DNA of 27,929 bases from a virus. Lineage: Duplodnaviria; Heunggongvirae; Uroviricota; Caudoviricetes. Below are positions 1,055 to 27,793 of the stretch, piece by piece. Under the pieces are notes generated by a model that worked only from the letters and a program-made list of their open reading frames with translations, had not been told where the DNA came from and searched no databases. The position numbers and the translations under genes were made by a program. The stretch lies in IMG/VR virus record IMGVR_UViG_2802429243_000001. One strand, given 5' to 3'. Positions within the stretch are counted from its first letter, which is position 1, and every line of letters starts with the position of its first letter.

Positions 1055-3072
1055 ACTGCCTCCTTGATTTGCCTGTCATTTAATTCTTTAAACCAGACTC
1101 TGAAATTTCTGATGTGTCCAAACAAATGACGCGTTCCTGCTGCGGTCTGCCCACCAAACCGGTACGATGTTGCTGTAACTCCAAATATTTTACCATTAAG
1201 GTTTGTTGTATAATTACCATTGCATATTGCATTTACTGATAAATCAGATTTAGCTCTCACACCCACAATGAACCTTTCTCCATCTGAGGCAATTTGTGGC
1301 TGAACCATTCCTACGTTGGCGCTTATCTTTCCTGTTGAAACAAACCCCAGCGATAAATAATTATCATCAATACTGTGCCCTCCAACATCAAATATCCTTG
1401 GCGCAACATTGGGCGGTGTACTCCAGTTCCTGCTTACTTCGCACAATACCGTAAAAGGCCGTGTTGACAGGTTATTCTGCGATGGGATAGTAACCACATC
1501 ACTTGCGCGTGTTGTTGGCATTGTAGTTACAATAAATGACGATGCCGTATTGCCCAGTTCAATTTGCGGCGTCGTCATGGTTAATGTTGAGTCATCATAG
1601 AATGGCTCATTACTTATTTTATTTGTCATATAAAAAGCACAGTTAACGGTATCAATGTCCGTATTAGCTGTATAAGTGGCCTCATAGTAGGTCCACTCGC
1701 CCTGTTGTTCAGCTTTGGCTGTTATAAGGGATGTATTACCGCTTACTGTTGCGATCCGGGTATCCAGATCAAGATAAGAGTCAGCAGAGAAGGTATCTGT
1801 TCCACCAATAATAACTGAAACTCTTAACCTGCATCGTGCTTTAGCGCCTTTAACCCGGCACGAAAAAGTGAAACATTCACCACTTGCCAGCGGGAATCTG
1901 TCTGCTGCAACCACACCATGCACAGTATAGCCACCTGTTGTTCCCACTATACTTTCCGTGGGTGTCACCGTGGCATAATTGAACCCCTGTTTATCAGTGC
2001 CAAATGTTTTATTCAGTGCGGAATGAACAGTCCATGAGTCTGGTTTATTTGAGTTCCTCAGATAATTTGTCCTCTGTCCTTCAATCAATAAGCCATCGCG
2101 CTCAAATCGCGGTTCATCAACTTCAGCAAGCTTGAGTTGGCCGGACTTATTAATATACGTTGCTGTTGAAGCACGTTTAAACTTAACAATCTTGTCGCCT
2201 GGCATTGTTATTTCATCGTCACCAATAACAATCTTTTTATATGATGGCGAAAACCCCGTAATCATATCCAGTGTATCGTTAAACGGTATCCATACATCAG
2301 GCAGCGGCGGCACTATATTCGCATAGGGCTCTGCAGTCACTTCCGCTGCGGCTTCTGCGCGGTCTGCCGCCTTTTCTGCTCGTGTCGCTGCCGACAGAGC
2401 CTCATCCTTTTTCTGCCCGGCCTTTGTTGCGTCTGCTGCGGCCTCCCGCGCTTTTGTGGTGGCGATTCCGGCATTTTCAGCGGCTGACTCTGCATTACGG
2501 CGGGAAGCCTCTTCACTGTCTGCGGAGGCTTCCTCTGACGCACGGGCATTTGTCTCTGAATGTTCTGCCGCTGTTGCTGCATTTTGTGCGGCTGTTTTTG
2601 AAGAAGCTGCCGCTTTCGCGCTGTTACCTGCATTCGTCTCTGATGTTTTCGCCGCGTTCCTGGACGATGCCGCTGCTGTTTCTGATTTCTTTGCTGCCGC
2701 TGCGCTCTGAGAGGCGGCTTCAGCGTTGCGTGCCGCCTCTTCCACCATCTTTTCAAAACGATACAGTGCCTCCGGACGAACATCATCTTCTGTTGCAGCG
2801 CCCAGAAAATCATTCAATGTCCCCGGCTTAGAATCCTCATACACGGTGATGGTCCCGGCATGTGAAGGCGGAAAACCTTCAACCAGCAGGGCGACGCTGT
2901 ACTGGCCATACTCAACATCCATGCTGTAACGTCCGGCTTCATCCGGATTTTCTGAGGCCACCGTGTTCACCACAACTGTGGTGCTGTTACGTTTTGCTTT
3001 GAGCTGAATGGTGCAGTTCTGTATCGGTTTTCCTGCACCGTCTTTCAGCACACCTGAAATCTGTACTGCCAT
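1051..3072 (-). CDS. stf: Side tail fibre protein (Stf-like); lambda-like N-terminal anchor and Ala/Ser/Thr-rich shaft, non-lambda C-terminal distal domain
   Basis: N-terminus MAVQISGVLKDGAGKPIQNCTIQLKA... matches lambda Stf as I recall it, followed by AAxxSETNA-type repeats. Likely start is the ATG at 3072 (GGAG RBS); the ORF track extends to a GTG at 3078. Confidence 0.85.
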   Translation of the reverse strand: MAVQISGVLKDGAGKPIQNCTIQLKAKRNSTTVVVNTVASENPDEAGRYSMDVEYGQYSVALLVEGFPPSHAGTITVYEDSKPGTLNDFLGAATEDDVRPEALYRFEKMVEEAARNAEAASQSAAAAKKSETAAASSRNAAKTSETNAGNSAKAAASSKTAAQNAATAAEHSETNARASEEASADSEEASRRNAESAAENAGIATTKAREAAADATKAGQKKDEALSAATRAEKAADRAEAAAEVTAEPYANIVPPLPDVWIPFNDTLDMITGFSPSYKKIVIGDDEITMPGDKIVKFKRASTATYINKSGQLKLAEVDEPRFERDGLLIEGQRTNYLRNSNKPDSWTVHSALNKTFGTDKQGFNYATVTPTESIVGTTGGYTVHGVVAADRFPLASGECFTFSCRVKGAKARCRLRVSVIIGGTDTFSADSYLDLDTRIATVSGNTSLITAKAEQQGEWTYYEATYTANTDIDTVNCAFYMTNKISNEPFYDDSTLTMTTPQIELGNTASSFIVTTMPTTRASDVVTIPSQNNLSTRPFTVLCEVSRNWSTPPNVAPRIFDVGGHSIDDNYLSLGFVSTGKISANVGMVQPQIASDGERFIVGVRAKSDLSVNAICNGNYTTNLNGKIFGVTATSYRFGGQTAAGTRHLFGHIRNFRVWFKELNDRQIKEAV

Positions 3073-7345: not shown

Positions 7346-7986
7346 TTGTCGGTATACCTCTCTCGTTTGCTCAGTTGTTCAGGAATATGGTGCAACAGCT
7401 CGCCGTCGCCGCAGTAAATGGCGGCATGATTCGGCACCGATGAACCAAAACAGCACAGCAGCACATCGCCCGGCTGCGCCGCTGACAACGGCACCTGATA
7501 CAGCCCTGTGGCCTCCAGATTATCCAGATAGAGATTCTGACCGTTACGCCACCAGTCATCCTCGCGGTGAAAATCCGGCATCTCAATCCCCGCCAGATGG
7601 TAAGCGTCCCGGAACAGCGTGTAACAGTCCGTCACCCCGTGCTCAAAGCGCCGCCCGATGAGATACGGCACACAGCGGAATTTATGAATCTCCCCGCGGC
7701 AGACCAGCCACCACGGTAAATCACTCTGCACCTGCAGCCGCCGGTCGGCTTCACTCAGCCAGGGCAGACCACCGGGATGGCTGTGGACCAGCGCCACAAT
7801 CTCACCCTGCATCTCTGCCTGCAGCCAGTCCTCCGGCGACATCCGGAAATACTCCTCCGGCTCACCGGAGATATTCACGCAGGGAAAATATCTTTCCCCC
7901 TCCGGCGTTCTCACCACGAAGCCGCACGACTCCGCTGGCGCACATCGTCGGGCGTGCGCCAGAATCGCTGATTCTGTCTCTGTCAT
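7243..7986 (-). CDS. K: Tail assembly protein K (NlpC/P60 + JAMM/MPN-like)
   Basis: HSHPGG motif and lambda gpK-like sequence; ATG at 7986. True start not verified. Confidence 0.85.
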   Translation of the reverse strand: MTETESAILAHARRCAPAESCGFVVRTPEGERYFPCVNISGEPEEYFRMSPEDWLQAEMQGEIVALVHSHPGGLPWLSEADRRLQVQSDLPWWLVCRGEIHKFRCVPYLIGRRFEHGVTDCYTLFRDAYHLAGIEMPDFHREDDWWRNGQNLYLDNLEATGLYQVPLSAAQPGDVLLCCFGSSVPNHAAIYCGDGELLHHIPEQLSKRERYTDKWQRRTHSLWRHRAWHASAFTGIYNDLAAASTFV

Positions 7987-9019: not shown

Positions 9020-11577
9020 CGTCCACCTCCGGAGAACAGACCACCATCGCGCATCTGCCCGGTCACAACATCCATTGCCGCCTTACGGGCTACGTCATAA
9101 ACCGCCTTCAGCGCCTGTGGCCCTATCTGACCGTTCGTGCCGTCGTTGTTAATCACCACATGGTTATTCTGCTCAAACTTCCCGGACGCCTGCGAGCGGC
9201 TGTCCGCCATGCTGCCCGGTGTACCGACATAACCGCCGGTGGCATAGCCGCGCATCAGCCGGTAGAGATTCCCCACGCCAATCCGGCTGGTTGCCTCCTT
9301 AGTGAAGACAAATTCACCACGGTGAACAATCCCCGCTGGCTCATATTTGCCGCCGGTTCCCGTAAATCCTCCGGTCGCAAAATGGAATTTCGCCGCAGCT
9401 GCCTGAATGGCTGTACCGCCTGACGCTGATGCGCCGCCACCAACAGCCCCGCCAATGGCGCTGCCGATACTCCCGACAATCCCCACCATTGCCTGCTTAA
9501 GCAGAATTTCTGTCATCATGGACAGCACGGAGCGGGTGAAGCTGCGCCAGTTCTGTTCACTGCCGGTCAGCATCGCCGCCATATTCTGCGCAATACCATC
9601 AAAGGTCTGCGTGGCTGCACTTTTAACCTGCGACATACTGTCCGTGGCGCTCTCTTCCCACTCACTCCAGCCGGACTTGAGGCCTGCCATCCAGCTCCCG
9701 CGAAGCTGGTCTTCAGCCGCCCAGGTCTTTTTCTGCTCTGACATGACGTTATTCAGCGCCAGCGAATTATCGCCATACTGTTCCTTCAGGCGCTGTTCTG
9801 TGGCTTCCCGCGCTGCCTGCCGGTCAGTAAGCCCCCGGTTTTTCGCCTCAATGGCTGCCCGTTTTGCCCGTTGTTGCTGTGCGAACTTATCCGCCTGCTG
9901 CGCCAGCGCATTCAGGTGCTCCTGATACGTGACCTTATCGCCAAGTACAGCCAGCTGGCGTTTGTACTCCAGCGTCTCATCTTTATGCGCCAGCAGGGAT
10001 TTCTCCTGTGCGGATAGCTGGCGACGTTGTGCCGCCTCCTCCAGTACCGCGAACTGATTTTCCGCCTTCCACAAATCCCGGCGCTGCTGGCTGATTTTCT
10101 CATTCGCTCCGGCATGCTTCTCCAGCGTCCGGAGTTCTGCCTGAAGCGTCAGCAGGGCAGCATGAGCACTGTCTTCCTGACGATCGCCCGCAGACACCTT
10201 CACGCCGGACTGTTTCGGCTTTTTCAGCGTCGCTTCATAATCCTTTTTCGCCGCCGCCATCAGCGTGTTGTAATCTGCCTGCAGGATTTTCCCGTCTTTC
10301 AGTGCCTTGTTCAGTTCTTCCTGACGGGCGGTATATTTCTCCAGCGGTGTCTGCAGCCGTTCGTAAGCCTTCTGCGCCTCTTCGGTATATTTCAGCCGTG
10401 ACGCTTCGGTATCGCTCTGCTGCTGCGCATTTTTGTCCTGTTGACTCTGCTGTTCAGCCTTCTTTCGGGCGGCTTTAAGCGCAAGACGGGCCTTTTCACG
10501 GTCATCCCAGTAACGCGCCCGCGCTTCATCGTTAACAAAATAATCATCCTTGCGCAGATTCCAGATGTCGTCCGCTTTCTTAAACGCAGCCTCTGCCTTA
10601 ATCAGCATCTCCTGAGCGGTATCAGGACGACCAATATCCAGCACCGCATCCCACATGGATTTGAATGCCCGTGCTGTCCTGTCTGCCCAGGTTTCCAGCG
10701 TGCCCATGTTCTCTTTCAGGCGTCGGGTCTGGTCATCAAACCCTTTCGTTGCGGCCTCGTTCGCCGCCTGCAATGCCCCGGCTTCATCGCCGGAACGCTG
10801 CAACTGAGCAACATACGCAATCTGTTCCGCCGTCACGTTATGGAACTGGCGTGCCATCGCCGTCAACCCCGACGTCGGGTCTGTGGTCAGCTTCCCGAAG
10901 GCTTCAGCGACCTTGTCCACCTCCACACCGGATGCAGAGGAGAAACGCGCCACACTCTGGCTGATGGACGCAATCTGAGCCTCACCGCTTACCCCCGCCT
11001 TAACCAGTGCGCTGAGTGACTCGCTGGTCTGGTTAAACGTCAGCCCTGCCGCCTGCCCGGCTCTGGACAGGACCAGAATACGATCTGCCGTCAGTCCCGC
11101 CTGATTGCCGGAAAGGACCAGCGTTTTGTTGAAATCGGACAGGGTTGAGTTGCCCTGATACCAGGCATACGCCAGCGCACCGGTCGCCACCGCCAGCGAG
11201 GTGGCCCCGACCATCGGCAGGGTGATCGCACCGGCAAGCCCCCTGAACATGGGGATCATCCCGCCGAAGGAGTCCTTAACCTGACCACCCTGTTGCAGCA
11301 GGATCAGCCACGGACTTTGCCCGCCTGCAAGCTGCGTGGCCACGTCGGTGAACTGTGCAGGAAGCATACGCATGGCGGCTTTATACTGTCCGACGGAAAT
11401 CCCCGCTTTCTGTGCAGCCAGCGCCTGTCGGCTCAGCGACTGTTCAACGACTGCCGCTGTTTTTTTCGCATCAGTTTCCGTACCGGAAAAATGACGCCTG
11501 ACTCTGGCCATCTGCTCGTCAAATCTGGCCGCATCCAGACTTAAATCAACGACCAGATCGCCTACCGGTTCAGCCAT
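9016..11577 (-). CDS. H: Tail tape measure protein H (853 aa)
   Basis: Same length as lambda gpH; coiled-coil-rich centre and Gly-rich C-terminus. Confidence 0.95.
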   Translation of the reverse strand: MAEPVGDLVVDLSLDAARFDEQMARVRRHFSGTETDAKKTAAVVEQSLSRQALAAQKAGISVGQYKAAMRMLPAQFTDVATQLAGGQSPWLILLQQGGQVKDSFGGMIPMFRGLAGAITLPMVGATSLAVATGALAYAWYQGNSTLSDFNKTLVLSGNQAGLTADRILVLSRAGQAAGLTFNQTSESLSALVKAGVSGEAQIASISQSVARFSSASGVEVDKVAEAFGKLTTDPTSGLTAMARQFHNVTAEQIAYVAQLQRSGDEAGALQAANEAATKGFDDQTRRLKENMGTLETWADRTARAFKSMWDAVLDIGRPDTAQEMLIKAEAAFKKADDIWNLRKDDYFVNDEARARYWDDREKARLALKAARKKAEQQSQQDKNAQQQSDTEASRLKYTEEAQKAYERLQTPLEKYTARQEELNKALKDGKILQADYNTLMAAAKKDYEATLKKPKQSGVKVSAGDRQEDSAHAALLTLQAELRTLEKHAGANEKISQQRRDLWKAENQFAVLEEAAQRRQLSAQEKSLLAHKDETLEYKRQLAVLGDKVTYQEHLNALAQQADKFAQQQRAKRAAIEAKNRGLTDRQAAREATEQRLKEQYGDNSLALNNVMSEQKKTWAAEDQLRGSWMAGLKSGWSEWEESATDSMSQVKSAATQTFDGIAQNMAAMLTGSEQNWRSFTRSVLSMMTEILLKQAMVGIVGSIGSAIGGAVGGGASASGGTAIQAAAAKFHFATGGFTGTGGKYEPAGIVHRGEFVFTKEATSRIGVGNLYRLMRGYATGGYVGTPGSMADSRSQASGKFEQNNHVVINNDGTNGQIGPQALKAVYDVARKAAMDVVTGQMRDGGLFSGGGR

Positions 11578-21379: not shown

Positions 21380-21405
<26 letters not shown>

Positions 21406-21925
21406 TCAGCAACCCCGGTATCAGTTCATCCAGCGCGGCTGCTTTGTTCATGGCTTTGATGATATCCCGTTTCAGGAAATCAACATGTCGGTTTTCCAGT
21501 TCCGGAAAACGCCGCTGCACCGACAGGGGGATCCCGTCGAGAATACTGGCAATTTCACCTGCGATCCGCGACAGCACGAAAGTACAGAATGCGGTTTCCA
21601 CCACTTCAGCGGAGTCTCTGGCATTTTTCAGCTCCTGTGCGTCGGCCTGCGCACGCGTAAGTCGATGGCGTTCGTACTCAATAGTCCCTGGCTGCAGATC
21701 TGTCTCGCTGGCCTGCCGCAGTTCTTCAACCTCCCGGCGCAGCTTTTCGTTCTCAATTTCAGCATCCCTTTCGGCATACCATTTTATGACGGCGGCAGAG
21801 TCATAAAGCACCTCATTACCCTTCCCGCCACCTCGCAGAACGGGCATTCCCTGCTCCTGCCAGTTCTGAATGGTACGGATGCTCGCACCGAAAATGTCAG
21901 CCAGCTGCTTTTTGTTGACTTCCAT
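21380..21925 (-). CDS. Nu1: Terminase small subunit Nu1 (181 aa)
   Basis: MEVNKKQLADIFGASIRTIQNWQEQGMPVLRGGGKGNEVLYD... is essentially lambda gpNu1 as recalled. Confidence 0.95.
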
Positions 21926-22313: not shown

Positions 22314-22547
22314 ATGTCAACGAAGAACAGAACCCGCAGAACAACAACCCGCAACATCCGCTTTCCTAACCAAATGATTGAACAAATTAACATCGCTCTT
22401 GTTCAAAAAGGGTCCGGGAATTTCTCAGCCTGGGTCATTGAAGCCTGCCGCCGGAGACTGTGCTCAGAAAAAAGAGTTTCGCCTGAAGCAAACAAAGAAA
22501 AGAGTGACATTACTGAATTGCTCAGAAAACAGGTCAGACCAGATTGA
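22314..22547 (+). CDS. Small ribbon-helix-helix-like DNA-binding protein (77 aa), AT-rich accessory gene
   Basis: Basic N-terminus (RTRRTTTRNIRF), then two short helices separated by KGSG (NQMIEQINIALVQ / NFSAWVIEACRRRL), typical RHH topology. Opposite strand to the late genes. Confidence 0.55.
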   Translation: MSTKNRTRRTTTRNIRFPNQMIEQINIALVQKGSGNFSAWVIEACRRRLCSEKRVSPEANKEKSDITELLRKQVRPD

Positions 22548-22604
22548 AGCAATTTAGATAATCGTGCAGACTACGCCCCATCATATCACATGGAAGGTAC
22601 TACA

Positions 22605-23015
22605 ATGGCTCAGGTTGCCATTTTTAAACAAATATTCGATAAAGTGCGAAATAATTTAAACTATCACTGGTTTTATTCTGAACTAAAACGTCACAATGTC
22701 TCACATTACATTTACTATTTAGCCACAGAGAATATTCATCTTGTTCTTGAAAACGATAATACGGTTTTAATAAAAGGACAGGGTAAGGTTGTAAATGTAA
22801 GATTTTCAAAAAATAAATGCCTTATAGAAGCCACCTTAAAAGGATTCAAATCAGGAGAGTTATCATTTTACGAATACAGGAAAAATCTTGCTACAGCAGG
22901 GGTTTTCAGATGGATTACAAATATCCACGAAAACAAAAGGTATTACTATACCTTTGATAATTCATTACTATTTACTGAGAACATTCAGAACACTACACAA
23001 ATATTTCCGCACTAA
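22605..23015 (+). CDS. DUF1398 / YbcV-like protein (136 aa), AT-rich accessory gene
   Basis: ATG at 22605 with GGAAGG 7 nt upstream; length and position match YbcV of DLP12 (the lambda putative envelope protein) as recalled. The ORF track start at 22590 has no RBS. Confidence 0.55.
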
Positions 23016-23052: not shown

Positions 23053-23603
23053 TCGCTGGCATGATGAAATATGTGTACCCGGTAACCCCGGTGTGCATCG
23101 TTTTTGATTATTCCCGCACACTCACGCAGAAGGAATTCCCCGTCGGGCTACGGTCTCTGTTAATACGGGAATACGGCGACGATACAGCGCATGATGTGTC
23201 AGGCTTGAATACCTTTATCCTTTAAAAGGGATATCAGTTAAGTTATCCCGTGTAGGGTATAAGCCATTATCAAAGCCACTCTGTAGGGAATGGCTTTTGT
23301 GATGGCATCACTTACTCTTTACGCTGCTATCCCACTCATCCCGGAATTTTGATGGGTTATTGAAACCTTCTGCTGACATAACAACTCCTTCAATGTTTGG
23401 CTGAAATTAGGATGTCTTTCCATCAGTCCGCCACCACAAAGAATCTTTTTTGCCATAAGGCAGGAGGTTCATCTTTCAGTGGCTGCCGGTGTTATTTCTC
23501 CACTTACTGGCTTGGGTTGTTTCGTGGTACTGCCGTTAACTGGTGGCCCAGAATAAATTCCGGTTTCATTATCAAGCCCACCCGTAAATGGGCTTTGTAA
23601 TGG

Positions 23604-23879
23604 CTACTTCACTTTTGCTTTTGCTTTTGCTTTTGCTTCCGCTCGCTTACGCCGGCGCTCTTCTTTCCTCTCGGCTTTTGCCATGTCCATGAATGCCTGC
23701 ATGATCGAGTTCCGCATCATGTAGCTAACAAAGTGATGATTGACACAGCCGTTGAGGCGCAGCTGCTCGCCAAACTCATCCACCGAGGCCAATGCTTCCA
23801 TCATGCCCTTCTCGCCTTTCATGAACTCTGAGAAGTCGCGCCCCGCTCTGGAGGCGCATTCAATAACCCGATCACTCAT
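23604..23879 (-). CDS. Hypothetical protein (91 aa) with KR-rich and (AK)n C-terminal tail; coupled to the upstream KilA-N gene
   Basis: ATG overlaps the KilA-N gene stop (ATGA at 23876-23879). C-terminus KAERKEERRRKRAEAKAKAKAKVK. Confidence 0.55.
   Translation of the reverse strand: MSDRVIECASRAGRDFSEFMKGEKGMMEALASVDEFGEQLRLNGCVNHHFVSYMMRNSIMQAFMDMAKAERKEERRRKRAEAKAKAKAKVK
23612..23638. repeat. Hexanucleotide tandem repeat (CTTTTG, about 4.5 copies) encoding the (AK)n tail of the 91-aa protein
   Basis: Direct inspection of 23612-23638. Confidence 0.8.
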
Positions 23880-24373
23880 CCCGGAAGCCCGGGGATCGTA
23901 ATCTGCAGCTGGTTAGCCAGGGAGTTAATCTCAGCGACCAACACTGGCTTCGTATAGCGCCATGCTGCCAGCCCTTGTCCGCAGAAGCTCGCCATGTCTT
24001 TCTTCTGGTCAAACTCATGACATTTCATGTTGAGCTGCGCACTTAAGCTGTTGCGATGCTGAAGTTCTCCGGTGAAGTAGTCATCGAGGACTTTATAGGC
24101 CGCGTACTTGAACCCGGGGTTTAACCAAGCCGCATAATCGTAAGCAACAAACTTCCCGCCATATGTTCCACCGTGTACACCGCGCTCAGTAAAAACCACA
24201 GATTCGTGGTTTTTCTCCAGCTCGGCTAAGAACTCTTTGGTCTGCTTGTTTCGCAGGTAGTGGTAAGGCGATTCAGATTCACTTTTACCACTGGCTTTCC
24301 ACATATCAGTGAGGCAGATCATGCCATCTTCACCGATACGAATTGGTTGATTGAAGAGGGTTAATGATTTCAT
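23876..24373 (-). CDS. KilA-N domain protein (165 aa)
   Basis: Pattern IRIGEDGMICLTDMWKASGK...YLRNKQTKEFLAEL...RG.HGGTYG...VAYDYAAWLNPGF fits the KilA-N/APSES consensus; ATG at 24373. Confidence 0.65.
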   Translation of the reverse strand: MKSLTLFNQPIRIGEDGMICLTDMWKASGKSESESPYHYLRNKQTKEFLAELEKNHESVVFTERGVHGGTYGGKFVAYDYAAWLNPGFKYAAYKVLDDYFTGELQHRNSLSAQLNMKCHEFDQKKDMASFCGQGLAAWRYTKPVLVAEINSLANQLQITIPGLPG

Positions 24374-24488
24374 AGCGTGTACCTACTCTTTGAAATGAAC
24401 CTTTGCCGCACAGGAAACCAGCCCACCGAGGCTCGCCAGCACTAACTGGTATCCTCAAAGGCCCATTCCAAAGGGGCAGGTTCGGTGT

Positions 24489-24513
24489 AAAAAACATGCG
24501 TTGCGGTACGCAT
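24489..24513 (-). terminator. Putative rho-independent terminator downstream of Rz
   Basis: Minus strand ATGCGT-accgca-ACGCAT followed by GTTTTTT. Confidence 0.45.
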
Positions 24514-24574
24514 TTATTGCAAAAAGCCCCGCATCGCGAGGCTCATTAAATGGACTTTGTGATTTGCAAAAAAA

Positions 24575-25033
24575 TTATTTCAGGCATTGCGTCCTGATGT
24601 ATTCCTGCAGGTAGTTAACCTGCGCGGTTATCTTGTCGATTCCACTTCGGAGACGGTAATAATTGAGTTCAGCATCTGCTGTAAGTCCTGGGCTTTCTCC
24701 ATCGCCCATGCCGCTGGCTCCGGTCGTTGACTTTGCACAGGTGGCGGCGACTTGCAGGCGCTTACGCCCAGCAGAAACATCAGCACGGAGACTTTCGATA
24801 GTCGCGTTAGCATCAGCAAGCTCCTTTGTGTATCTTGCGTCGAGTTCTGCTACATCACGTTGACGCTTCCGCATGTCAGCGATGGTGGCGTTCGCCTTCT
24901 CCAGTTCACTGGCCTTGTTATCGCGCTGCTCTTTGTAGGCGATTGCGTTATCACGGTAATGATTAACAGCCAATGACAGGCAGACGATGATGCAGATAAC
25001 CAGAGCGGAGATAATCGCGGTTACTCTGTTCAT
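24575..25033 (-). CDS. Rz: i-spanin Rz (152 aa)
   Basis: [20 protein letters not shown]...NHYRDNA... with N-terminal TM, coiled coil and C-terminal Cys; ATG at 25033 overlaps the R stop (ATGA). Confidence 0.9.
24628..24813 (-). CDS. Rz1: o-spanin Rz1 (lipoprotein), embedded in the +1 frame of Rz
   Basis: [20 protein letters not shown] lipobox, then Pro-rich [16 protein letters not shown]; AAGGAG RBS 7 nt upstream of the ATG at 24813. Confidence 0.8.
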
Positions 25034-25527
25034 TGCTGACCCCACAAACAGATTTCACGCTCAATCTCACGACGAGTCATGAGACCTTTCCATTGCTTAC
25101 CGCCAGCATATGTCCAGCGACGTAGCTGATCACATGTGCCTTTGATATCGCCCTGGTTTATTTTGCGAAGAAGCGTCGATGTTCTGAAATTGCCAGCGCC
25201 CACGTTGTAAACGAACGAGTAAAGAGCGCCGCGCATTGTTTCCGGTATATCAACTTTTATGTACGGGTTAATTTGTCTGGCGACCGTGGCAAGGTCTTTA
25301 TTCAGGAGGGCTTTGCATTCTGCTTTGGTATACGTTTTACCGAGCATGATGTCTTTTCCTGTATGCCCGTGACATACAGTCCATACACCAACAATATCTT
25401 TGTATGGTATGTAGCTGACACCTTCCAGACCATCGTTACCACTTGGGCCAGTGATTAACACTGATGCTATAGCAATTGCTCCGCCACCAATAGCAGCAGC
25501 AACGACTTTTCGTAATGATGGAGGCAT
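25030..25527 (-). CDS. R: SAR (signal-anchor-release) endolysin, phage-21 R type lysozyme (165 aa)
   Basis: Gly/Ala-rich weakly hydrophobic N-terminal SAR domain ([20 protein letters not shown]) followed by a lysozyme domain; matches R21 as recalled. Confidence 0.9.
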
Positions 25528-25742
25528 TATTCACCTCTCGCAGCCTTGCGCTTATCTTCTTTAATCTTGAAATAAAGGTTTGTCAGGTACGTCAGCAGGC
25601 CAAATACCAGGCTACCCAGCACACCTATTGCTGCCCACTGTGAGGGCGTGACTTTATCGAGCAGCTGTAAAAACCAGTAGCCAGCACTGCCTGCGGAGGT
25701 GCCGTAGGCAATGCCCGTTGTTAACTTATCCATGGATTTCAT
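25527..25742 (-). CDS. S: Pinholin S21 (71 aa; dual-start motif MKSMDKL giving the S21-71 antiholin and S21-68 holin)
   Basis: [31 protein letters not shown]...[13 protein letters not shown] matches phage 21 S as recalled; GGAGGTGAGG RBS. Confidence 0.9.
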
Positions 25743-25930: not shown

Positions 25931-26662
25931 TTACATCATGTCTTTTTCTAAAAAAAATCTTGATGAATATTGATGGGGAGGAACACCAAAATATCTTCTG
26001 AAAACACTTACAAAATATGACGTGTTTTCATAACCGCATATCTCAGCAACTTTTCCAACAGAATATAAATTGTAGCTTAATAACCTTTCCGCCATCACCA
26101 TTCGCTCTTCAAGAATTAATTTACTAAATGATAAGCCTTCGTGCTTTAATTTTCTTTTTAACAGACTTTCACTCAGATACAGTCTTGAAGATATATCACA
26201 AAGTCTCCATGTTGCAGATATATCCGTGTGAATAATAGCCTTAACTTTACTTCCTAAACTATTAAGACATCCAAATAAAAAACTTTGCACTATTTTCTCT
26301 GAAGATAAGATAGCAAGACATGCAAGTGATATTTGATTTCTAACAAAATCCACAGTTCTGCCATCACAATTCAAGCATGCAATCAAGTTCTTTAACAATG
26401 AAAAATCTTCACATTCCACCATCAAGTATGCCGGATAAAACCTTCTTACAGAAAAAGGTGAGAGTGTGTTGCTTTTAAAGAAATCATTAACTGTTTTCTC
26501 TTCAACATCTACGATCATTACATGATCTATATTTGATGAAAAAAAATCTTTTAAATTGTAATCAATGAGAACAGCACTTCCTTTTTTAAACAAAATATCT
26601 TCTTTACCAATTCGGACATCAAACGAGTTCAACACCAAAATGATAGAACATATGTATGGCAT
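25931..26662 (-). CDS. AraC-family transcriptional regulator, AppY/EnvY-like (about 243 aa), AT-rich accessory gene
   Basis: C-terminal AraC-type HTH (VGKVAEICGYENTSYFVSVFRRYFGVPPHQY); N-terminus MPYICSIILVLNSFD... resembles AppY of DLP12 as recalled. ATG at 26662 with AGGTGG RBS; the track start at 26671 is a GTG. Confidence 0.75.
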   Translation of the reverse strand: MPYICSIILVLNSFDVRIGKEDILFKKGSAVLIDYNLKDFFSSNIDHVMIVDVEEKTVNDFFKSNTLSPFSVRRFYPAYLMVECEDFSLLKNLIACLNCDGRTVDFVRNQISLACLAILSSEKIVQSFLFGCLNSLGSKVKAIIHTDISATWRLCDISSRLYLSESLLKRKLKHEGLSFSKLILEERMVMAERLLSYNLYSVGKVAEICGYENTSYFVSVFRRYFGVPPHQYSSRFFLEKDMM

Positions 26663-27013
26663 ATTATCCACCTGATATCATTGGGGTTACACCAGGTAAG
26701 TATAGGTGGAAAATCAATATTCGCCAGTTCAACAATAAGGAAAATCTCATTGCATCACAAGTATAAAATTATGTATTTAACTCACAAAGACAAATTATTA
26801 AACCAATCTGTTATATTATATATAGCTGCGTGGAATCATAATATCATATATTTTGACTGGCATGTTTACCAAATTTAAGTTGCATCTCAATGGTTTCTTC
26901 AGCGTAAACAGAGTTTTTATACAAACTGACACTCTGGGTATCATAGTGTAGTTTTTACGATTGTAAATATCCTGTATGCAGGAACTCATCCTTTTGGATG
27001 ATATCGCATACAA

Positions 27014-27793
27014 TTAATTTACCATCAGTCTTAGAGCCAGTTCGTCCGGATAGGGATCGAAGTAATTCTGTGTAAGCAAGTAATCATTAGGATACTCACC
27101 CAGATAATGCTTCAGCAGAGTCAACGGCGCAAGAAGAGGTAATGTGCCAGAACGATAGTTAAGTATAACCTCGCTCAACTCTTTACGCTGGCGTGTACTT
27201 AAGTAGTTACTAAAATACCCCTGTATATGCATCAGCACATTCGTGTGATTTTTACGTGATGCAGGTTTTCTGAGAATCGCCATCAGCTTATCACGATACA
27301 CCTCAAAGTATGATTCAAGATCCGCCCACTCGTGTATTGCAGCCACAAATGGTCCCATATCTTTATAGCCTGTCTGACTATGCGCCAACAACTGAAGCTT
27401 ATAACGACTATGAAAAGCCAATAACTCTCTTCTTGATAATTTCTCCTTGTAAAGGTGATTGAGCTCATGCAAAGCAAAAACTCTTTCAACAAAATTCTCA
27501 CGAAGCACTGGATCATGTAATCGCCCATCCTCTTCAACCGGTAGCCAGGAAAACTTTTCCATCAAAGTGCTCGTAAATAGTCCCACTCCATCTTTACGAC
27601 CTCGATTACCATTTTCATCATAGACACGCACGCGCTCCATGCCACAGCTGGGAGATTTAGCACAAACCACAAACCCCGATACATCCTTTAATTTGTCCAT
27701 ATAAGAACGACTAAACTCTGTCATTCTCTCTGTCACATCCTCATTCTGGTCGTGGCTGAAACACATCCGTATATTTCCTTGCGTCGAGCGCAC
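27014..27793 (-). CDS. DUF523/DUF1722 (YbgA-like) protein, probably 5'-truncated by the adjacent IS element
   Basis: Contains the SPSCG motif and a DUF1722-like C-terminal half (HTNVLMHIQGY...LLAPLTLLKHYL) as recalled for YbgA; the N-terminal part of DUF523 is absent; the reading frame runs open into the IS terminal repeat; the first in-frame start is a GTG at 27793. Confidence 0.55.
   Translation of the reverse strand: MRSTQGNIRMCFSHDQNEDVTERMTEFSRSYMDKLKDVSGFVVCAKSPSCGMERVRVYDENGNRGRKDGVGLFTSTLMEKFSWLPVEEDGRLHDPVLRENFVERVFALHELNHLYKEKLSRRELLAFHSRYKLQLLAHSQTGYKDMGPFVAAIHEWADLESYFEVYRDKLMAILRKPASRKNHTNVLMHIQGYFSNYLSTRQRKELSEVILNYRSGTLPLLAPLTLLKHYLGEYPNDYLLTQNYFDPYPDELALRLMVN

Follow-up and report, generated by a model that had tools for sequence, protein, structure and literature searches.

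The window analysed here, a 27,929-nt stretch of viral DNA, carries on its minus strand two coupled genes downstream of the lysis genes (Table 1). The preliminary description had placed a 165-aa KilA-N gene and a 91-aa gene here in the late orientation, and we verified both open reading frames, their coordinates and their overlap: plus-strand positions 23876-23879 read tcat, or ATGA on the coding strand, so that the stop of the KilA-N gene overlaps the start of the 91-aa gene. The order of the neighbouring genes downstream of Rz matches what had been described, as does the absence of a bor-like open reading frame between the pair and Nu1, where we found just DUF1398 and DUF3950/YnfO genes on the opposite strand. 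Neither a Q gene nor pR' was seen in the window, which also has no sar-like antisense RNA, and the list of open reading frames and the neighbour annotation gave no Arc/Mnt-type regulator or LexA-type control near the pair. Just past the stop codon of the 91-aa gene, a hairpin without a U-run forms the commonest 3' boundary of the cassette; homology to the window stops at 23567 in 37 loci, and Klebsiella phage RAH1 has an equivalent GCCCA/UGGGC hairpin 3' of its small gene. Two short open reading frames downstream of the pair, a hydrophobic one of 25 aa on the plus strand (23479-23556) and one of 21 aa on the minus strand, were rejected as genes because their variable sites are not biased towards any codon position and 1-nt deletions occur in some copies.

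Table 1. Coordinates of the cassette, its leader and the neighbouring genes in the window.
Feature	Position	Strand	Basis or remark
Lambda-type Nu1	21380-21925		downstream of pair
3' hairpin, AAGCCCA-loop-UGGGCUU	23574..23595	minus	just past stop codon; read from sequence
Small partner, 91 aa	23604..23879	minus	PHROG 875; basic K/R/A-rich C-terminal tail
Perfect hexanucleotide repeat GCAAAA (coding strand), 4.5 copies	23612..23638	minus	Tandem Repeats Finder
Bro-network protein, 165 aa	23876..24373	minus	Pfam; PHROGs 129 and 10441
Long leader hairpin, ~100 nt	24371..24478	minus	covariance model R1, 48.6 bits, E ~2e-11
Leader hairpin 2, AUGCGU-accgca-ACGCAU	24496..24513	minus	scanner match; U-run follows in window
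Leader hairpin 1, stem AGCCUCGC-gau-GCGGGGCU (24543-24525) plus U5 (24524-21)	24521..24543	minus	sequence reading
Rz	24575-25045	minus	upstream of pair
Lysozyme	25030-25527	minus	upstream of pair
Holin	25527-25742	minus	upstream of pair

Protein domains were assigned where the score lay above the Pfam gathering score. The upstream gene does encode a KilA-N protein, with KilA-N (PF04383) at residues 9-101 (E=1.3e-15, 57.6 bits against a cut-off of 23.8) and ORF11CD3 (PF10549) at residues 109-161 (E=2.4e-13, 50.5 bits against a cut-off of 25). The ORF11CD3 prototype, D3 orf11, aligns across 92% of the query, and HkbK of phage HK620 is 96% identical to the window protein. Pfam searches of this protein gave no match to Phage_pRha (PF09669) and none to the AntA, ANT or P22_AR_N domains, and found no nuclease domain in either protein of the pair. 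Across relatives, an N-terminal DNA-binding module is joined to interchangeable C-terminal modules, KilA-N being paired with ORF11CD3 or P63C and ORF11CD3 with KilA-N, Phage_pRha or P22_AR_N, which places the protein in the Bro network.

The 91-aa open reading frame is a true gene, as judged by its match to PHROG 875 (E=3.9e-54), its 138 database relatives and its low pairwise dN/dS (0.04-0.31, with dS up to ~2), indicative of purifying selection. This coding signature across homologues answers the doubt that the preliminary description had raised about the frame. The protein was not recognised then and is still uncharacterised: PHROG 875 is of unknown function, neither Pfam nor NCBIfam nor PDB-sequence profile searches gave a match, and the AlphaFold model (three helices, pLDDT 91) retrieved nothing with E<=0.001 from the PDB and BFVD using Foldseek. 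The basic C-terminus reported earlier is present, its (AK)n part being encoded by the hexanucleotide repeat, and differences in repeat copy number account for the 85-, 87-, 89- and 91-aa variants found in different phages. A candidate zinc site at C8, C45, H48 and H49 was dropped, as distant homologues replace C8 and C45.

The 190 nt upstream of the KilA-N gene constitute a conserved structured leader with three hairpins, which the preliminary description overlooked. The terminator-like hairpin that it reported is real and corresponds to hairpin 2, but it is just one of the three. Hairpin 1, which marks the 5' boundary of the cassette, consists of an 8-bp G+C-rich stem followed by U5 and is a predicted intrinsic terminator. 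In HK97, HK620 and Klebsiella phage RAH1 our scanner placed the same hairpin and U-run ahead of the cassette; its equivalent is annotated as a putative terminator in the phi80 record, and in two loci (L071 and L088) a different stem replaces it at the same position. Every leader type keeps hairpin 2 in the form of a GCGC-stem hairpin, and one pair in it is compensatory. In the RNAfold minimum-energy structure of the long hairpin in the window, an anti-Shine-Dalgarno (SD) segment, ACCUGC, pairs with the SD stretch GUAGGU, located 7 nt before the ATG at 24373-24371. The SD stretch is likewise the 3' strand of the basal helix (helix 1) in the covariance-model consensus (gCCuuu with aaaGG), in a register slightly different from that of the window, and this helix is 96.5% paired across sequences. 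Among 48 distinct sequences of the long hairpin, pairing holds in 94.8% of cells and compensatory changes occur in 28 of the 33 pairs, a level of covariation reached by none of 500 shuffles; these counts were made on an alignment fitted to the model structure, which inflates pairing, but slid controls were nonetheless far lower (34-49% paired). The covariance model was built, and the leaders re-aligned, because RNAalifold on a MAFFT alignment mis-registered the long hairpin. A degenerate pattern scan of viral contigs was unspecific, and screening with the model yielded further true leaders among the matches listed. The leader had no Rfam match at gathering thresholds, and the best scores below them were at chance level (rimP leader, 20.1 of 47 bits; DUF805b, 14.1 of 35.6 bits). 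This leader also stands in front of P22 rha, phi80 rha, HK97 gp73 and ST104 orf45, as well as AntA, P22_AR_N+ORF11CD3, T5orf172-fusion and HNH_3 genes, and several loci contain two leader-cassette units in tandem.

A crude consensus scan of the coding strand from Rz to the ATG, which weak or non-sigma-70 promoters could escape, gave no sigma-70-like site. Nor did the scan back a promoter inside the leader, where candidate -10 elements are not conserved from one leader type to another. With respect to morons, the cassette has flanking hairpins, and no conserved sigma-70 promoter appeared in the crude scan. Expression from the prophage is not what these features suggest: what we read upstream of the pair is a terminator-like hairpin and a hairpin predicted to mask the SD, instead of a promoter-like site.

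Taken as a unit, the two genes are a real, widespread and uncharacterised phage cassette. The pair is present in 389 of 5,426 complete E. coli genomes and also constitutes hkbK/hkbL of HK620. At all 93 loci with readable upstream sequence the KilA-N gene ends at the start of the small gene, the upstream gene encoding KilA-N+ORF11CD3 in 87 cases and KilA-N+P63C in 6, so that the proposed coupling is borne out as a conserved pair. The pair also co-occurs independently of its neighbours: its flanks fall into at least 11 types on the upstream side and at least 22 on the downstream side, homology breaks off recurrently at 23567 and 24446-24511, and some copies in Klebsiella and Raoultella sit amid tail genes. 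The two genes travel together, even to such tail-gene sites, and the idea that an accessory slot of variable content lies between Rz and cos is supported.

Other contexts of the small gene bear on what its product may be. At two loci (L098 and L099) its domain lies next to Rha. In an arc-ant-rha locus, the gene of a divergent homologue begins across the stop codon of a Phage_pRha gene, and in distant relatives the domain is fused to T5orf172/MUG113 (P0133, E=6.8e-5; P0136, E=6.7e-4; also L207). The constancy of Bro-network neighbours together with the T5orf172 fusions, which the preliminary description had not noted, identifies the small protein as an unnamed Bro-network module rather than a cognate antitoxin. 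Moreover, the small proteins of mEp234 and the window are separated by a dN of 0.015, while their upstream proteins are just 23% identical. Near-identical small proteins beside very different Bro proteins argue against a specific complex, and the two proteins may act independently. The cognate toxin-antitoxin pairing entertained at the outset does not survive this comparison, in which the C-terminal domain of the upstream protein differs as well. On our preferred reading, set out next, the cassette is neither a cognate toxin-antitoxin pair nor a lysogenic-conversion gene like bor.

The pair sits in what is classically the rha slot of phages P22 and phi80, a correspondence that the preliminary description had missed. 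We see almost an even chance that the cassette acts like Rha and is one allele among the accessory cassettes that lambdoid phages interchange at this place in the late operon. The link to Rha rests on the slot, the leader and one common C-terminal domain, with different N-terminal domains. Under this reading the cassette, having no promoter of its own, would be transcribed only during late lytic growth, by Q-modified polymerase reading through from pR'; the hairpin 1 terminator would block stray transcription in the lysogen, and the masked ribosome-binding site would hold translation low or conditional until the long stem is opened, by RNase III cleavage, to speculate, or by another factor. 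The products would be dose-sensitive, DNA-directed proteins acting like Rha, which is itself dispensable but, if deregulated in an IHF-deficient host, halts phage DNA synthesis. The small protein would be a separate Bro-network module working with a DNA-binding domain; in this cassette and its kin another protein (KilA-N or Rha) would provide that domain in trans, and in the T5orf172 fusions it would be present in cis. The basic tail of the small protein probably contacts nucleic acid. Rather short of even, in our estimate, is the chance that the leader is an undescribed cis-regulatory RNA gating Bro-network and HNH genes and that the 91-aa protein is a new Bro-network module; with the same reserve, this joint reading may take in P22, phi80, HK97, HK620 and Stx phages at the Rz-terminase slot.

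Alternatively, the KilA-N protein, with or without its partner, could be an antirepressor that, in the manner of P22 Ant, binds the CI-type repressors of prophages or satellites in the same cell and inactivates them late in infection, so triggering cross-induction. Classical antirepressors belong to the Bro network, AntA and P22_AR_N genes are preceded by the same leader, and tight gating would suit a protein that induces a prophage upon leaking; homologues of the small protein also occur in such surroundings, one in an arc-arc-ant-rha locus and one, as a fusion protein, beside an Arc/Arc/Bro-N locus. We nevertheless regard this role as unlikely, because the protein in the window lacks the AntA, ANT and P22_AR domains, has no Arc-family open reading frame or other Arc/Mnt- or LexA-type control close by, as the P22 Ant-type class would, and carries in KilA-N a domain that is viewed as DNA-binding and not repressor-binding (Iyer et al., 2002, as cited in PMC8585504).

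The occurrence of the leader before HNH endonuclease genes may mean that it marks a landing site of selfish genes and not a functional class. The slot and leader would then be a landing pad for freestanding endonuclease-like genes and their DNA-binding relatives; expression would be held down solely to keep damage to the carrier phage small, and the pair would bring no benefit. The HNH_3 genes behind the leader are of the AP2 type and the T5orf172 fusions are GIY-YIG-like, the distribution is mosaic with sharp recurrent breakpoints, leader-cassette units occur in tandem in several loci, and hairpins that sequester the ribosome-binding site are known to limit the expression of phage homing endonucleases (T4 I-TevI, Aeh1 mobE). 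However, both proteins of the window lack a nuclease domain, and the small protein, being under strong purifying selection and conserved in several genera, probably has a selected function, making a purely selfish cassette a rather doubtful proposition.

Membership in a defence, anti-defence or toxin-antitoxin system is not supported, and the toxin-modulator, anti-defence or exclusion role put forward in the preliminary description found little in PADLOC, which matched the KilA-N part to the candidate model PDC-S22 (1.2e-8) at the domain level and returned nothing meaningful for the 91-aa partner, as did NCBIfam. An anti-defence pair directed at a host defence system is improbable even though the slot varies among otherwise similar phages and the proteins are small and of unknown function, as late gated expression would come too late for most counter-defence roles and neither protein resembles any characterised one. 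Least probable of all is a prophage-expressed toxin-antitoxin, abortive-infection or exclusion system. P1 KilA kills its host, and the PDC-S22 match could be read in the same direction; yet no promoter was found, a terminator-like hairpin and a masked SD lie upstream, the cassette is placed and oriented within the late operon, the small protein fails to vary in step with the upstream one, as the partners of a type II toxin-antitoxin system should, and the only PADLOC match was not to BstA, which has 307 aa against 165 here. The abortive-infection protein BstA does contain a KilA-N domain, as the protein in the window does (PMC8585504).

Bro-network genes (KilA-N, Rha, Ant, Bro-N and T5orf172) are among the commonest unexplained genes of temperate phages; they occur in Shiga-toxin phages as well as in the models P22, phi80 and HK97. 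What the analysis adds is the placing of the pair as a rha-slot allele and of its partner as a shuffled Bro-network module, with alleles that share a covarying, putatively SD-masking leader. These "hypothetical proteins" thereby become a testable unit, with one RNA element, one slot and well-developed genetic systems. If the joint reading of the leader and the small protein is true, it would open a molecular way into the Rha/IHF phenotype, known for 40 years, and into the role of these ubiquitous late "antirepressor-like" genes; were the cassette only selfish, the finding would be ordinary. There is also a consequence for annotation, in that pipelines often set the start codons of rha- and kilA-type genes within the leader.

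Several known systems can be set beside the cassette. Control of translation by a leader hairpin is known from the lambda N leader and RNase III, and the leader described here resembles such phage mRNA leaders in that an extended, imperfect hairpin lying directly before the start codon pairs with the SD; the leader has no sequence relationship to the lambda N or T4 leader hairpins and belongs to no Rfam family. BstA is a protein of ~307 aa with its own C-terminal domain, expressed from the prophage beside the repressor locus and containing an internal aba element, whereas the 165-aa protein of the window is encoded in the late operon, behind a terminator-like hairpin and a leader predicted to mask its SD. 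The P22 Ant/immI-type antirepressors and other Bro-network proteins (Iyer, Koonin and Aravind, 2002) are likewise modular, with N- and C-terminal domains swapped. Their genes are nonessential, lie among late genes and are tightly controlled, in which they can be likened to our cassette, and relatives of the small protein in arc-ant-rha loci link it to Ant-type systems; the window differs in lacking a P22_AR, AntA or ANT domain, Arc/Mnt regulators and a sar-like antisense RNA.

Closer relatives are found among the lambdoid phages, and literature searches found no functional study of hkbK/hkbL, gp73, PhiR49 or ORF11CD3. HK97 (gp73 and the downstream open reading frame HK97p61) and mEp234 have the small gene and the leader in common with the window, but HK97 gp73 is a KilA-N+P63C protein of 242 aa whose KilA-N part is just 23% identical to that of the window, and a frameshift interrupts the small gene of HK97 after residue 54. 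The hkbK/hkbL genes of HK620 are direct orthologues, and all 85 residues of HkbL match those of the window protein. The rha genes of P22 (orf201) and phi80 lack the small partner gene, and Rha carries Phage_pRha as its N-terminal domain in place of KilA-N. The IHF-dependent phenotype is documented for Rha only, growth inhibition in IHF-deficient hosts and regulation by IHF being known just from the genetics of phi80 and P22. The phi80 record reads "DNA synthesis inhibition in IHF- hosts", and the work of Mozola and Friedman (1985) and of Henthorn and Friedman (1995) is summarised in PMC4936722. Nevertheless, rha and the cassette share the slot directly after Rz/Rz1 in the late operon; the phi80 rha leader is identical to the HK620 type (133.7 bits) and that of P22 rha is 94.6% identical to the window leader; P22 Rha has the ORF11CD3 C-terminal domain in common with the protein of the window; and all of these proteins are members of the Bro network.

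The window corresponds to the late half of a prophage resembling lambda, read on the minus strand: the holin, lysozyme and Rz genes are followed by the pair (see table) and, further downstream, by genes for a lambda-type Nu1, terminase A, the portal, the head and the tail. The preliminary description had reported a KilA-N domain gene overlapping a 91-aa gene with a basic tail, and no bor-like gene. This observation was confirmed by Pfam matches far over the cut-offs to both KilA-N (E = 1.3e-15) and the ORF11CD3 domain (E = 2.4e-13), by the overlap of the small-gene ATG with the upstream TGA (ATGA), and by the failure to find any bor-like ORF in the window. Neither a Q gene nor pR′ is visible within the window, so the activator may be missing from this prophage's late operon, or morons may lie between Q and S. 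The ~590 nt past the pair are without a credible gene. The arrangement of DUF1398 and DUF3950/YnfO genes is also present in PhiR49_1 and APEC IMT5155. A non-coding stretch 3′ of the pair (23411-23567) is ~85-99% conserved in HK620, HK97 and mEp phages; it holds a 25-aa hydrophobic ORF (plus strand, after AGGAGG) and a 21-aa ORF (minus strand), which were rejected as genes given the absence of codon-position bias and the 1-nt deletions in some copies. Rfam gave a sub-threshold match in this stretch (Proteo-phage-1, 19.8 of 42 bits).

Coordinates of the pair, its leader and its neighbors in the window and in related phage loci
Feature	Sequence	Coordinates	Strand	Remarks
DUF1722/2-thiouracil-desulfurase-like gene	window	27014-27793	-	beyond AraC-family gene
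AraC-family regulator gene (HTH_18/HTH_AraC)	window	25931-26671	-	directly upstream of holin, late orientation
P21-type holin	window	25527-25742	-	first in late gene order
Lysozyme	window	25030-25527	-	after holin
Rz with embedded Rz1-like ORF	window	24575-25045	-	after lysozyme
Leader	window	24371-24543	-	
Hairpin 1, AGCCUCGC-loop-GCGGGGCU plus U-run	window	24543-24521	-	terminator-like, 5′ end of leader
Hairpin 2, GC stem	window	24513-24496	-	hairpin of the preliminary description
Long imperfect hairpin, ~100 nt	window		-	third leader element, ends just before ATG
KilA-N+ORF11CD3 gene, 165 aa	window	23876-24373	-	after Rz
Small partner gene, 91 aa	window	23604-23879	-	after KilA-N gene
DUF1398 and DUF3950/YnfO genes	window	22314-23015	+	between pair and cos/Nu1, opposite to late operon
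Leader	P22 (L101)	39465-39646		
Leader	phi80 (L226)	7610-7778		
Leader	HK97 (L004)	1591-1774		
Double leaders	L071	1566-1672, 2937-3043		
Double leaders	L089	3402-3509, 5136-5223		
Double leaders	phi80 (L226)	7673-7778, 9267-9355		

The small ORF is genuinely coding. Pairwise dN/dS was 0.04-0.31 among nine DNA copies, with dS reaching saturation, and the motifs GRDFSxFxxGEK and GCxNHHF are invariant. Over its whole length the protein aligns with PHROG 875 (E = 3.9e-54), which is listed as "unknown function"; it has no relatives in Pfam, NCBIfam or the PDB. We found 138 relatives in a database of 5.8 billion clusters, nearly all from Enterobacteriaceae; the family is narrow, as a search of 1.84 billion proteins with a profile built from 20 diverse members returned no more than 22 representative clusters. 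AlphaFold modeled the protein confidently (pLDDT 91) as three helices (3-20, 26-42 and 48-90), and Foldseek returned no significant match to this model in the PDB or BFVD. The C-terminal tail is consistently K/R-rich, and its (AK)n stretch derives from a perfect GCAAAA repeat (23612-23638) whose copy number varies among phages to give products of 85, 87, 89 or 91 aa. The HK97 copy (HK97p61, L004 2501-2734) diverges past residue 54 and is 77 aa long, being apparently frameshifted when compared with mEp234 and HK022. Two chimeric database "proteins" (P0001 and P0006), in which the ORF11CD3 end or a piece of Rz runs into the small protein, could mislead domain-architecture surveys; they probably represent copies that have been frameshifted or rearranged.

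A KilA-N gene ends at the start of the small gene in all 93 loci with readable upstream sequence. In 87 of these it is of the window type, with a 4-nt overlap, while the other six carry a KilA-N+P63C gene of the HK97 gp73 type separated from the small gene by 2 nt. The two types of KilA-N protein are only 23% identical, yet the small proteins of the window and mEp234, which lie behind different types, have a dN of only 0.015, and the Klebsiella-type small protein is found behind both. These swaps rule out a co-evolving cognate pair, and in view of them a specific heterodimer is no more than a possibility. In one arc-arc-ant-rha locus, the stop codon of the Phage_pRha gene is overlapped by a divergent homolog (P0122). 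In the most distant homologs (P0133, P0136 and L207) the small-protein domain is fused N-terminally to a T5orf172/MUG113 domain, which likewise belongs to the Bro network; one such locus adjoins a KilA-N+P63C gene and an Arc/Arc/Bro-N locus, and another sits between lysis genes and terminase. KilA-N+ORF11CD3 or KilA-N-only genes without the partner occur in D3 (the prototype orf11), ST104 and a Vibrio phage. By Rosetta-stone reasoning, the small protein would be an accessory module functioning with a Bro-type DNA-binding domain. Its translational coupling, its fusion to such a domain elsewhere and its basic tail indicate that it probably acts together with the DNA-binding protein.

The 190 nt from Rz to the KilA-N start form a leader that is conserved whichever KilA-N type follows it and whatever the context. 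The terminator-like hairpin previously noted downstream of Rz is present, but is the second of three leader hairpins. In two lineages another terminator-like stem takes the place of hairpin 1. RNAfold reached the same architecture independently for most leader types (-70.8 kcal/mol, z = -2.9 for the window leader); the HK97/RAH1 type and ST104 gave alternative minimum-energy folds, although the covariance model still aligns both to the common structure. That model of the long hairpin, built from the HK620-type core (106 positions, 33 pairs), matched the window copy with 48.6 bits (E about 2e-11) and identified ~65 leader copies among the fetched loci. Across 48 distinct leader sequences, standard pairs made up 94.8% of cells and 28 of the 33 pairs had both partners changed (268 cells). 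These values were not reached in any of 500 shuffles, and slid-partner controls gave 34-49% pairing and 5-9 pairs with two-sided changes; fitting the alignment to the model favors pairing, but the contrast with the controls is nonetheless large. In the basal helix, an anti-SD is paired with the Shine-Dalgarno sequence (GCCUUU/AAAGGU in most types, ACCUGC/GUAGGU in the window). No Rfam 15 family matches the leader, and no sigma-70-like promoter was found in the window leader or is conserved among leader types.

Defining downstream genes from the ATG that closes each leader copy, we found that the leader precedes KilA-N+ORF11CD3 and KilA-N+P63C genes, each with the small gene; KilA-N-only genes (ST104 orf45 type); Phage_pRha genes with or without ORF11CD3, among them P22 rha and phi80 rha; AntA and P22_AR_N+ORF11CD3 genes; and small-domain/T5orf172 fusions, HNH_3 endonucleases and a few unknowns. 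By blastn, the window-type leader alone is present in 75 phage records, including P22, BTP1, ES18 and HK544. Two leader-cassette units in one phage, as in L071, L089, L106, L146, L170, L215 and phi80, suggest an insertion or expression module that can recur and is marked by the leader. One such locus has a P22_AR_N+ORF11CD3 gene before Rz and the KilA-N pair after it, and phi80 has rha and a 242-aa ORF similar to N15 gp59. CDSs overlapping the leader are annotated in many records. The deposited start of P22 rha is an in-frame GTG inside the leader (L101 39575), and that of phi80 rha lies inside it as well, 12 codons upstream (L226 7740); the ATG common to all leader copies (P22 39644, phi80 locus 7776) is more likely to be the true rha start.

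The 770-bp pair occurs in 389 of 5,426 complete E. coli genomes (at least 80% coverage), a larger count of 1,878 genomes taking in hits on Rz and on the leader by itself; PGAP annotates it as "KilA-N domain-containing protein" and "hypothetical protein." The small protein is encoded by 57 phage records, including HK620 (hkbK/hkbL), ECP1, PhiR49_1, Stx phages 1717 and 2851, Salmonella phages, HK97, HK022, mEp phages and Klebsiella phages. Across the fetched loci the pair has at least 11 upstream and at least 22 downstream flank types. Homology to the window recurrently ends at 23567, just beyond a hairpin after the stop codon, and also at 23411, at the R/Rz junction and, upstream, at 24446 or 24511. 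In Klebsiella phage RAH1 and one Raoultella contig the pair is located among tail genes. These varied flanks, breakpoints and locations indicate that the pair moves as a unit. Enterobacterial-phage-like copies in a contig labeled Candidatus Nanosynbacter MAG (L008; small protein 98% identical, DNA 98.7% identical to the window) and in Actinobacillus phage vB_Apl-pPE4 (PP818812; KilA-N protein 96% identical, small gene present for its first 22 residues only) more likely reflect mis-binning or contamination than true host range.

The window pair is an allele of the rha slot, for which experimental knowledge concerns only Rha. This product of the late operon is described as dispensable; in hosts deficient in IHF it stops phage DNA synthesis and growth, and rha is reportedly regulated by IHF (phi80 record; PMC4936722, citing Mozola and Friedman, 1985; Henthorn and Friedman, 1995). 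The terminator-like hairpin in front, the lack of a recognizable promoter and the masked ribosome-binding site are best read as a double lock. Transcription of the cassette would come solely from Q-antiterminated read-through, and the masked site would hold translation low or conditional. Control of this kind implies that the product does harm when its timing or dose is wrong, in keeping with a DNA-directed protein similar to Rha, Kil or an antirepressor. An antirepressor for cross-induction is a plausible alternative that overlaps with this reading. A selfish homing-type cassette is unlikely: HNH and T5orf172 genes sit behind the same leader, but the small gene is under strong purifying selection and the window pair lacks a nuclease domain. 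The anti-defense role proposed in the preliminary description is more doubtful still, having no positive evidence and the wrong timing of expression. A prophage-expressed toxin-antitoxin or BstA-like abortive infection system, the least probable, is contradicted by the gating, by where the cassette lies and by partners that do not co-vary.

The KilA-N+ORF11CD3 architecture received its name in 2002, and the pair has been in databases since HK620 and HK97 were sequenced; at that level it is an ordinary uncharacterized member of the Bro network. Within the literature and databases searched, the recognition of the small protein as a Bro-network module, of the cassette as a rha-slot allele and of a covarying, SD-masking leader common to all alleles appears to be new. 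It is this leader, rather than the earlier defense or toxin idea, that carries most of the significance. In the lambda N leader a stem is cleaved by RNase III, and by analogy we suggest that the long stem described here may be opened in the same way.
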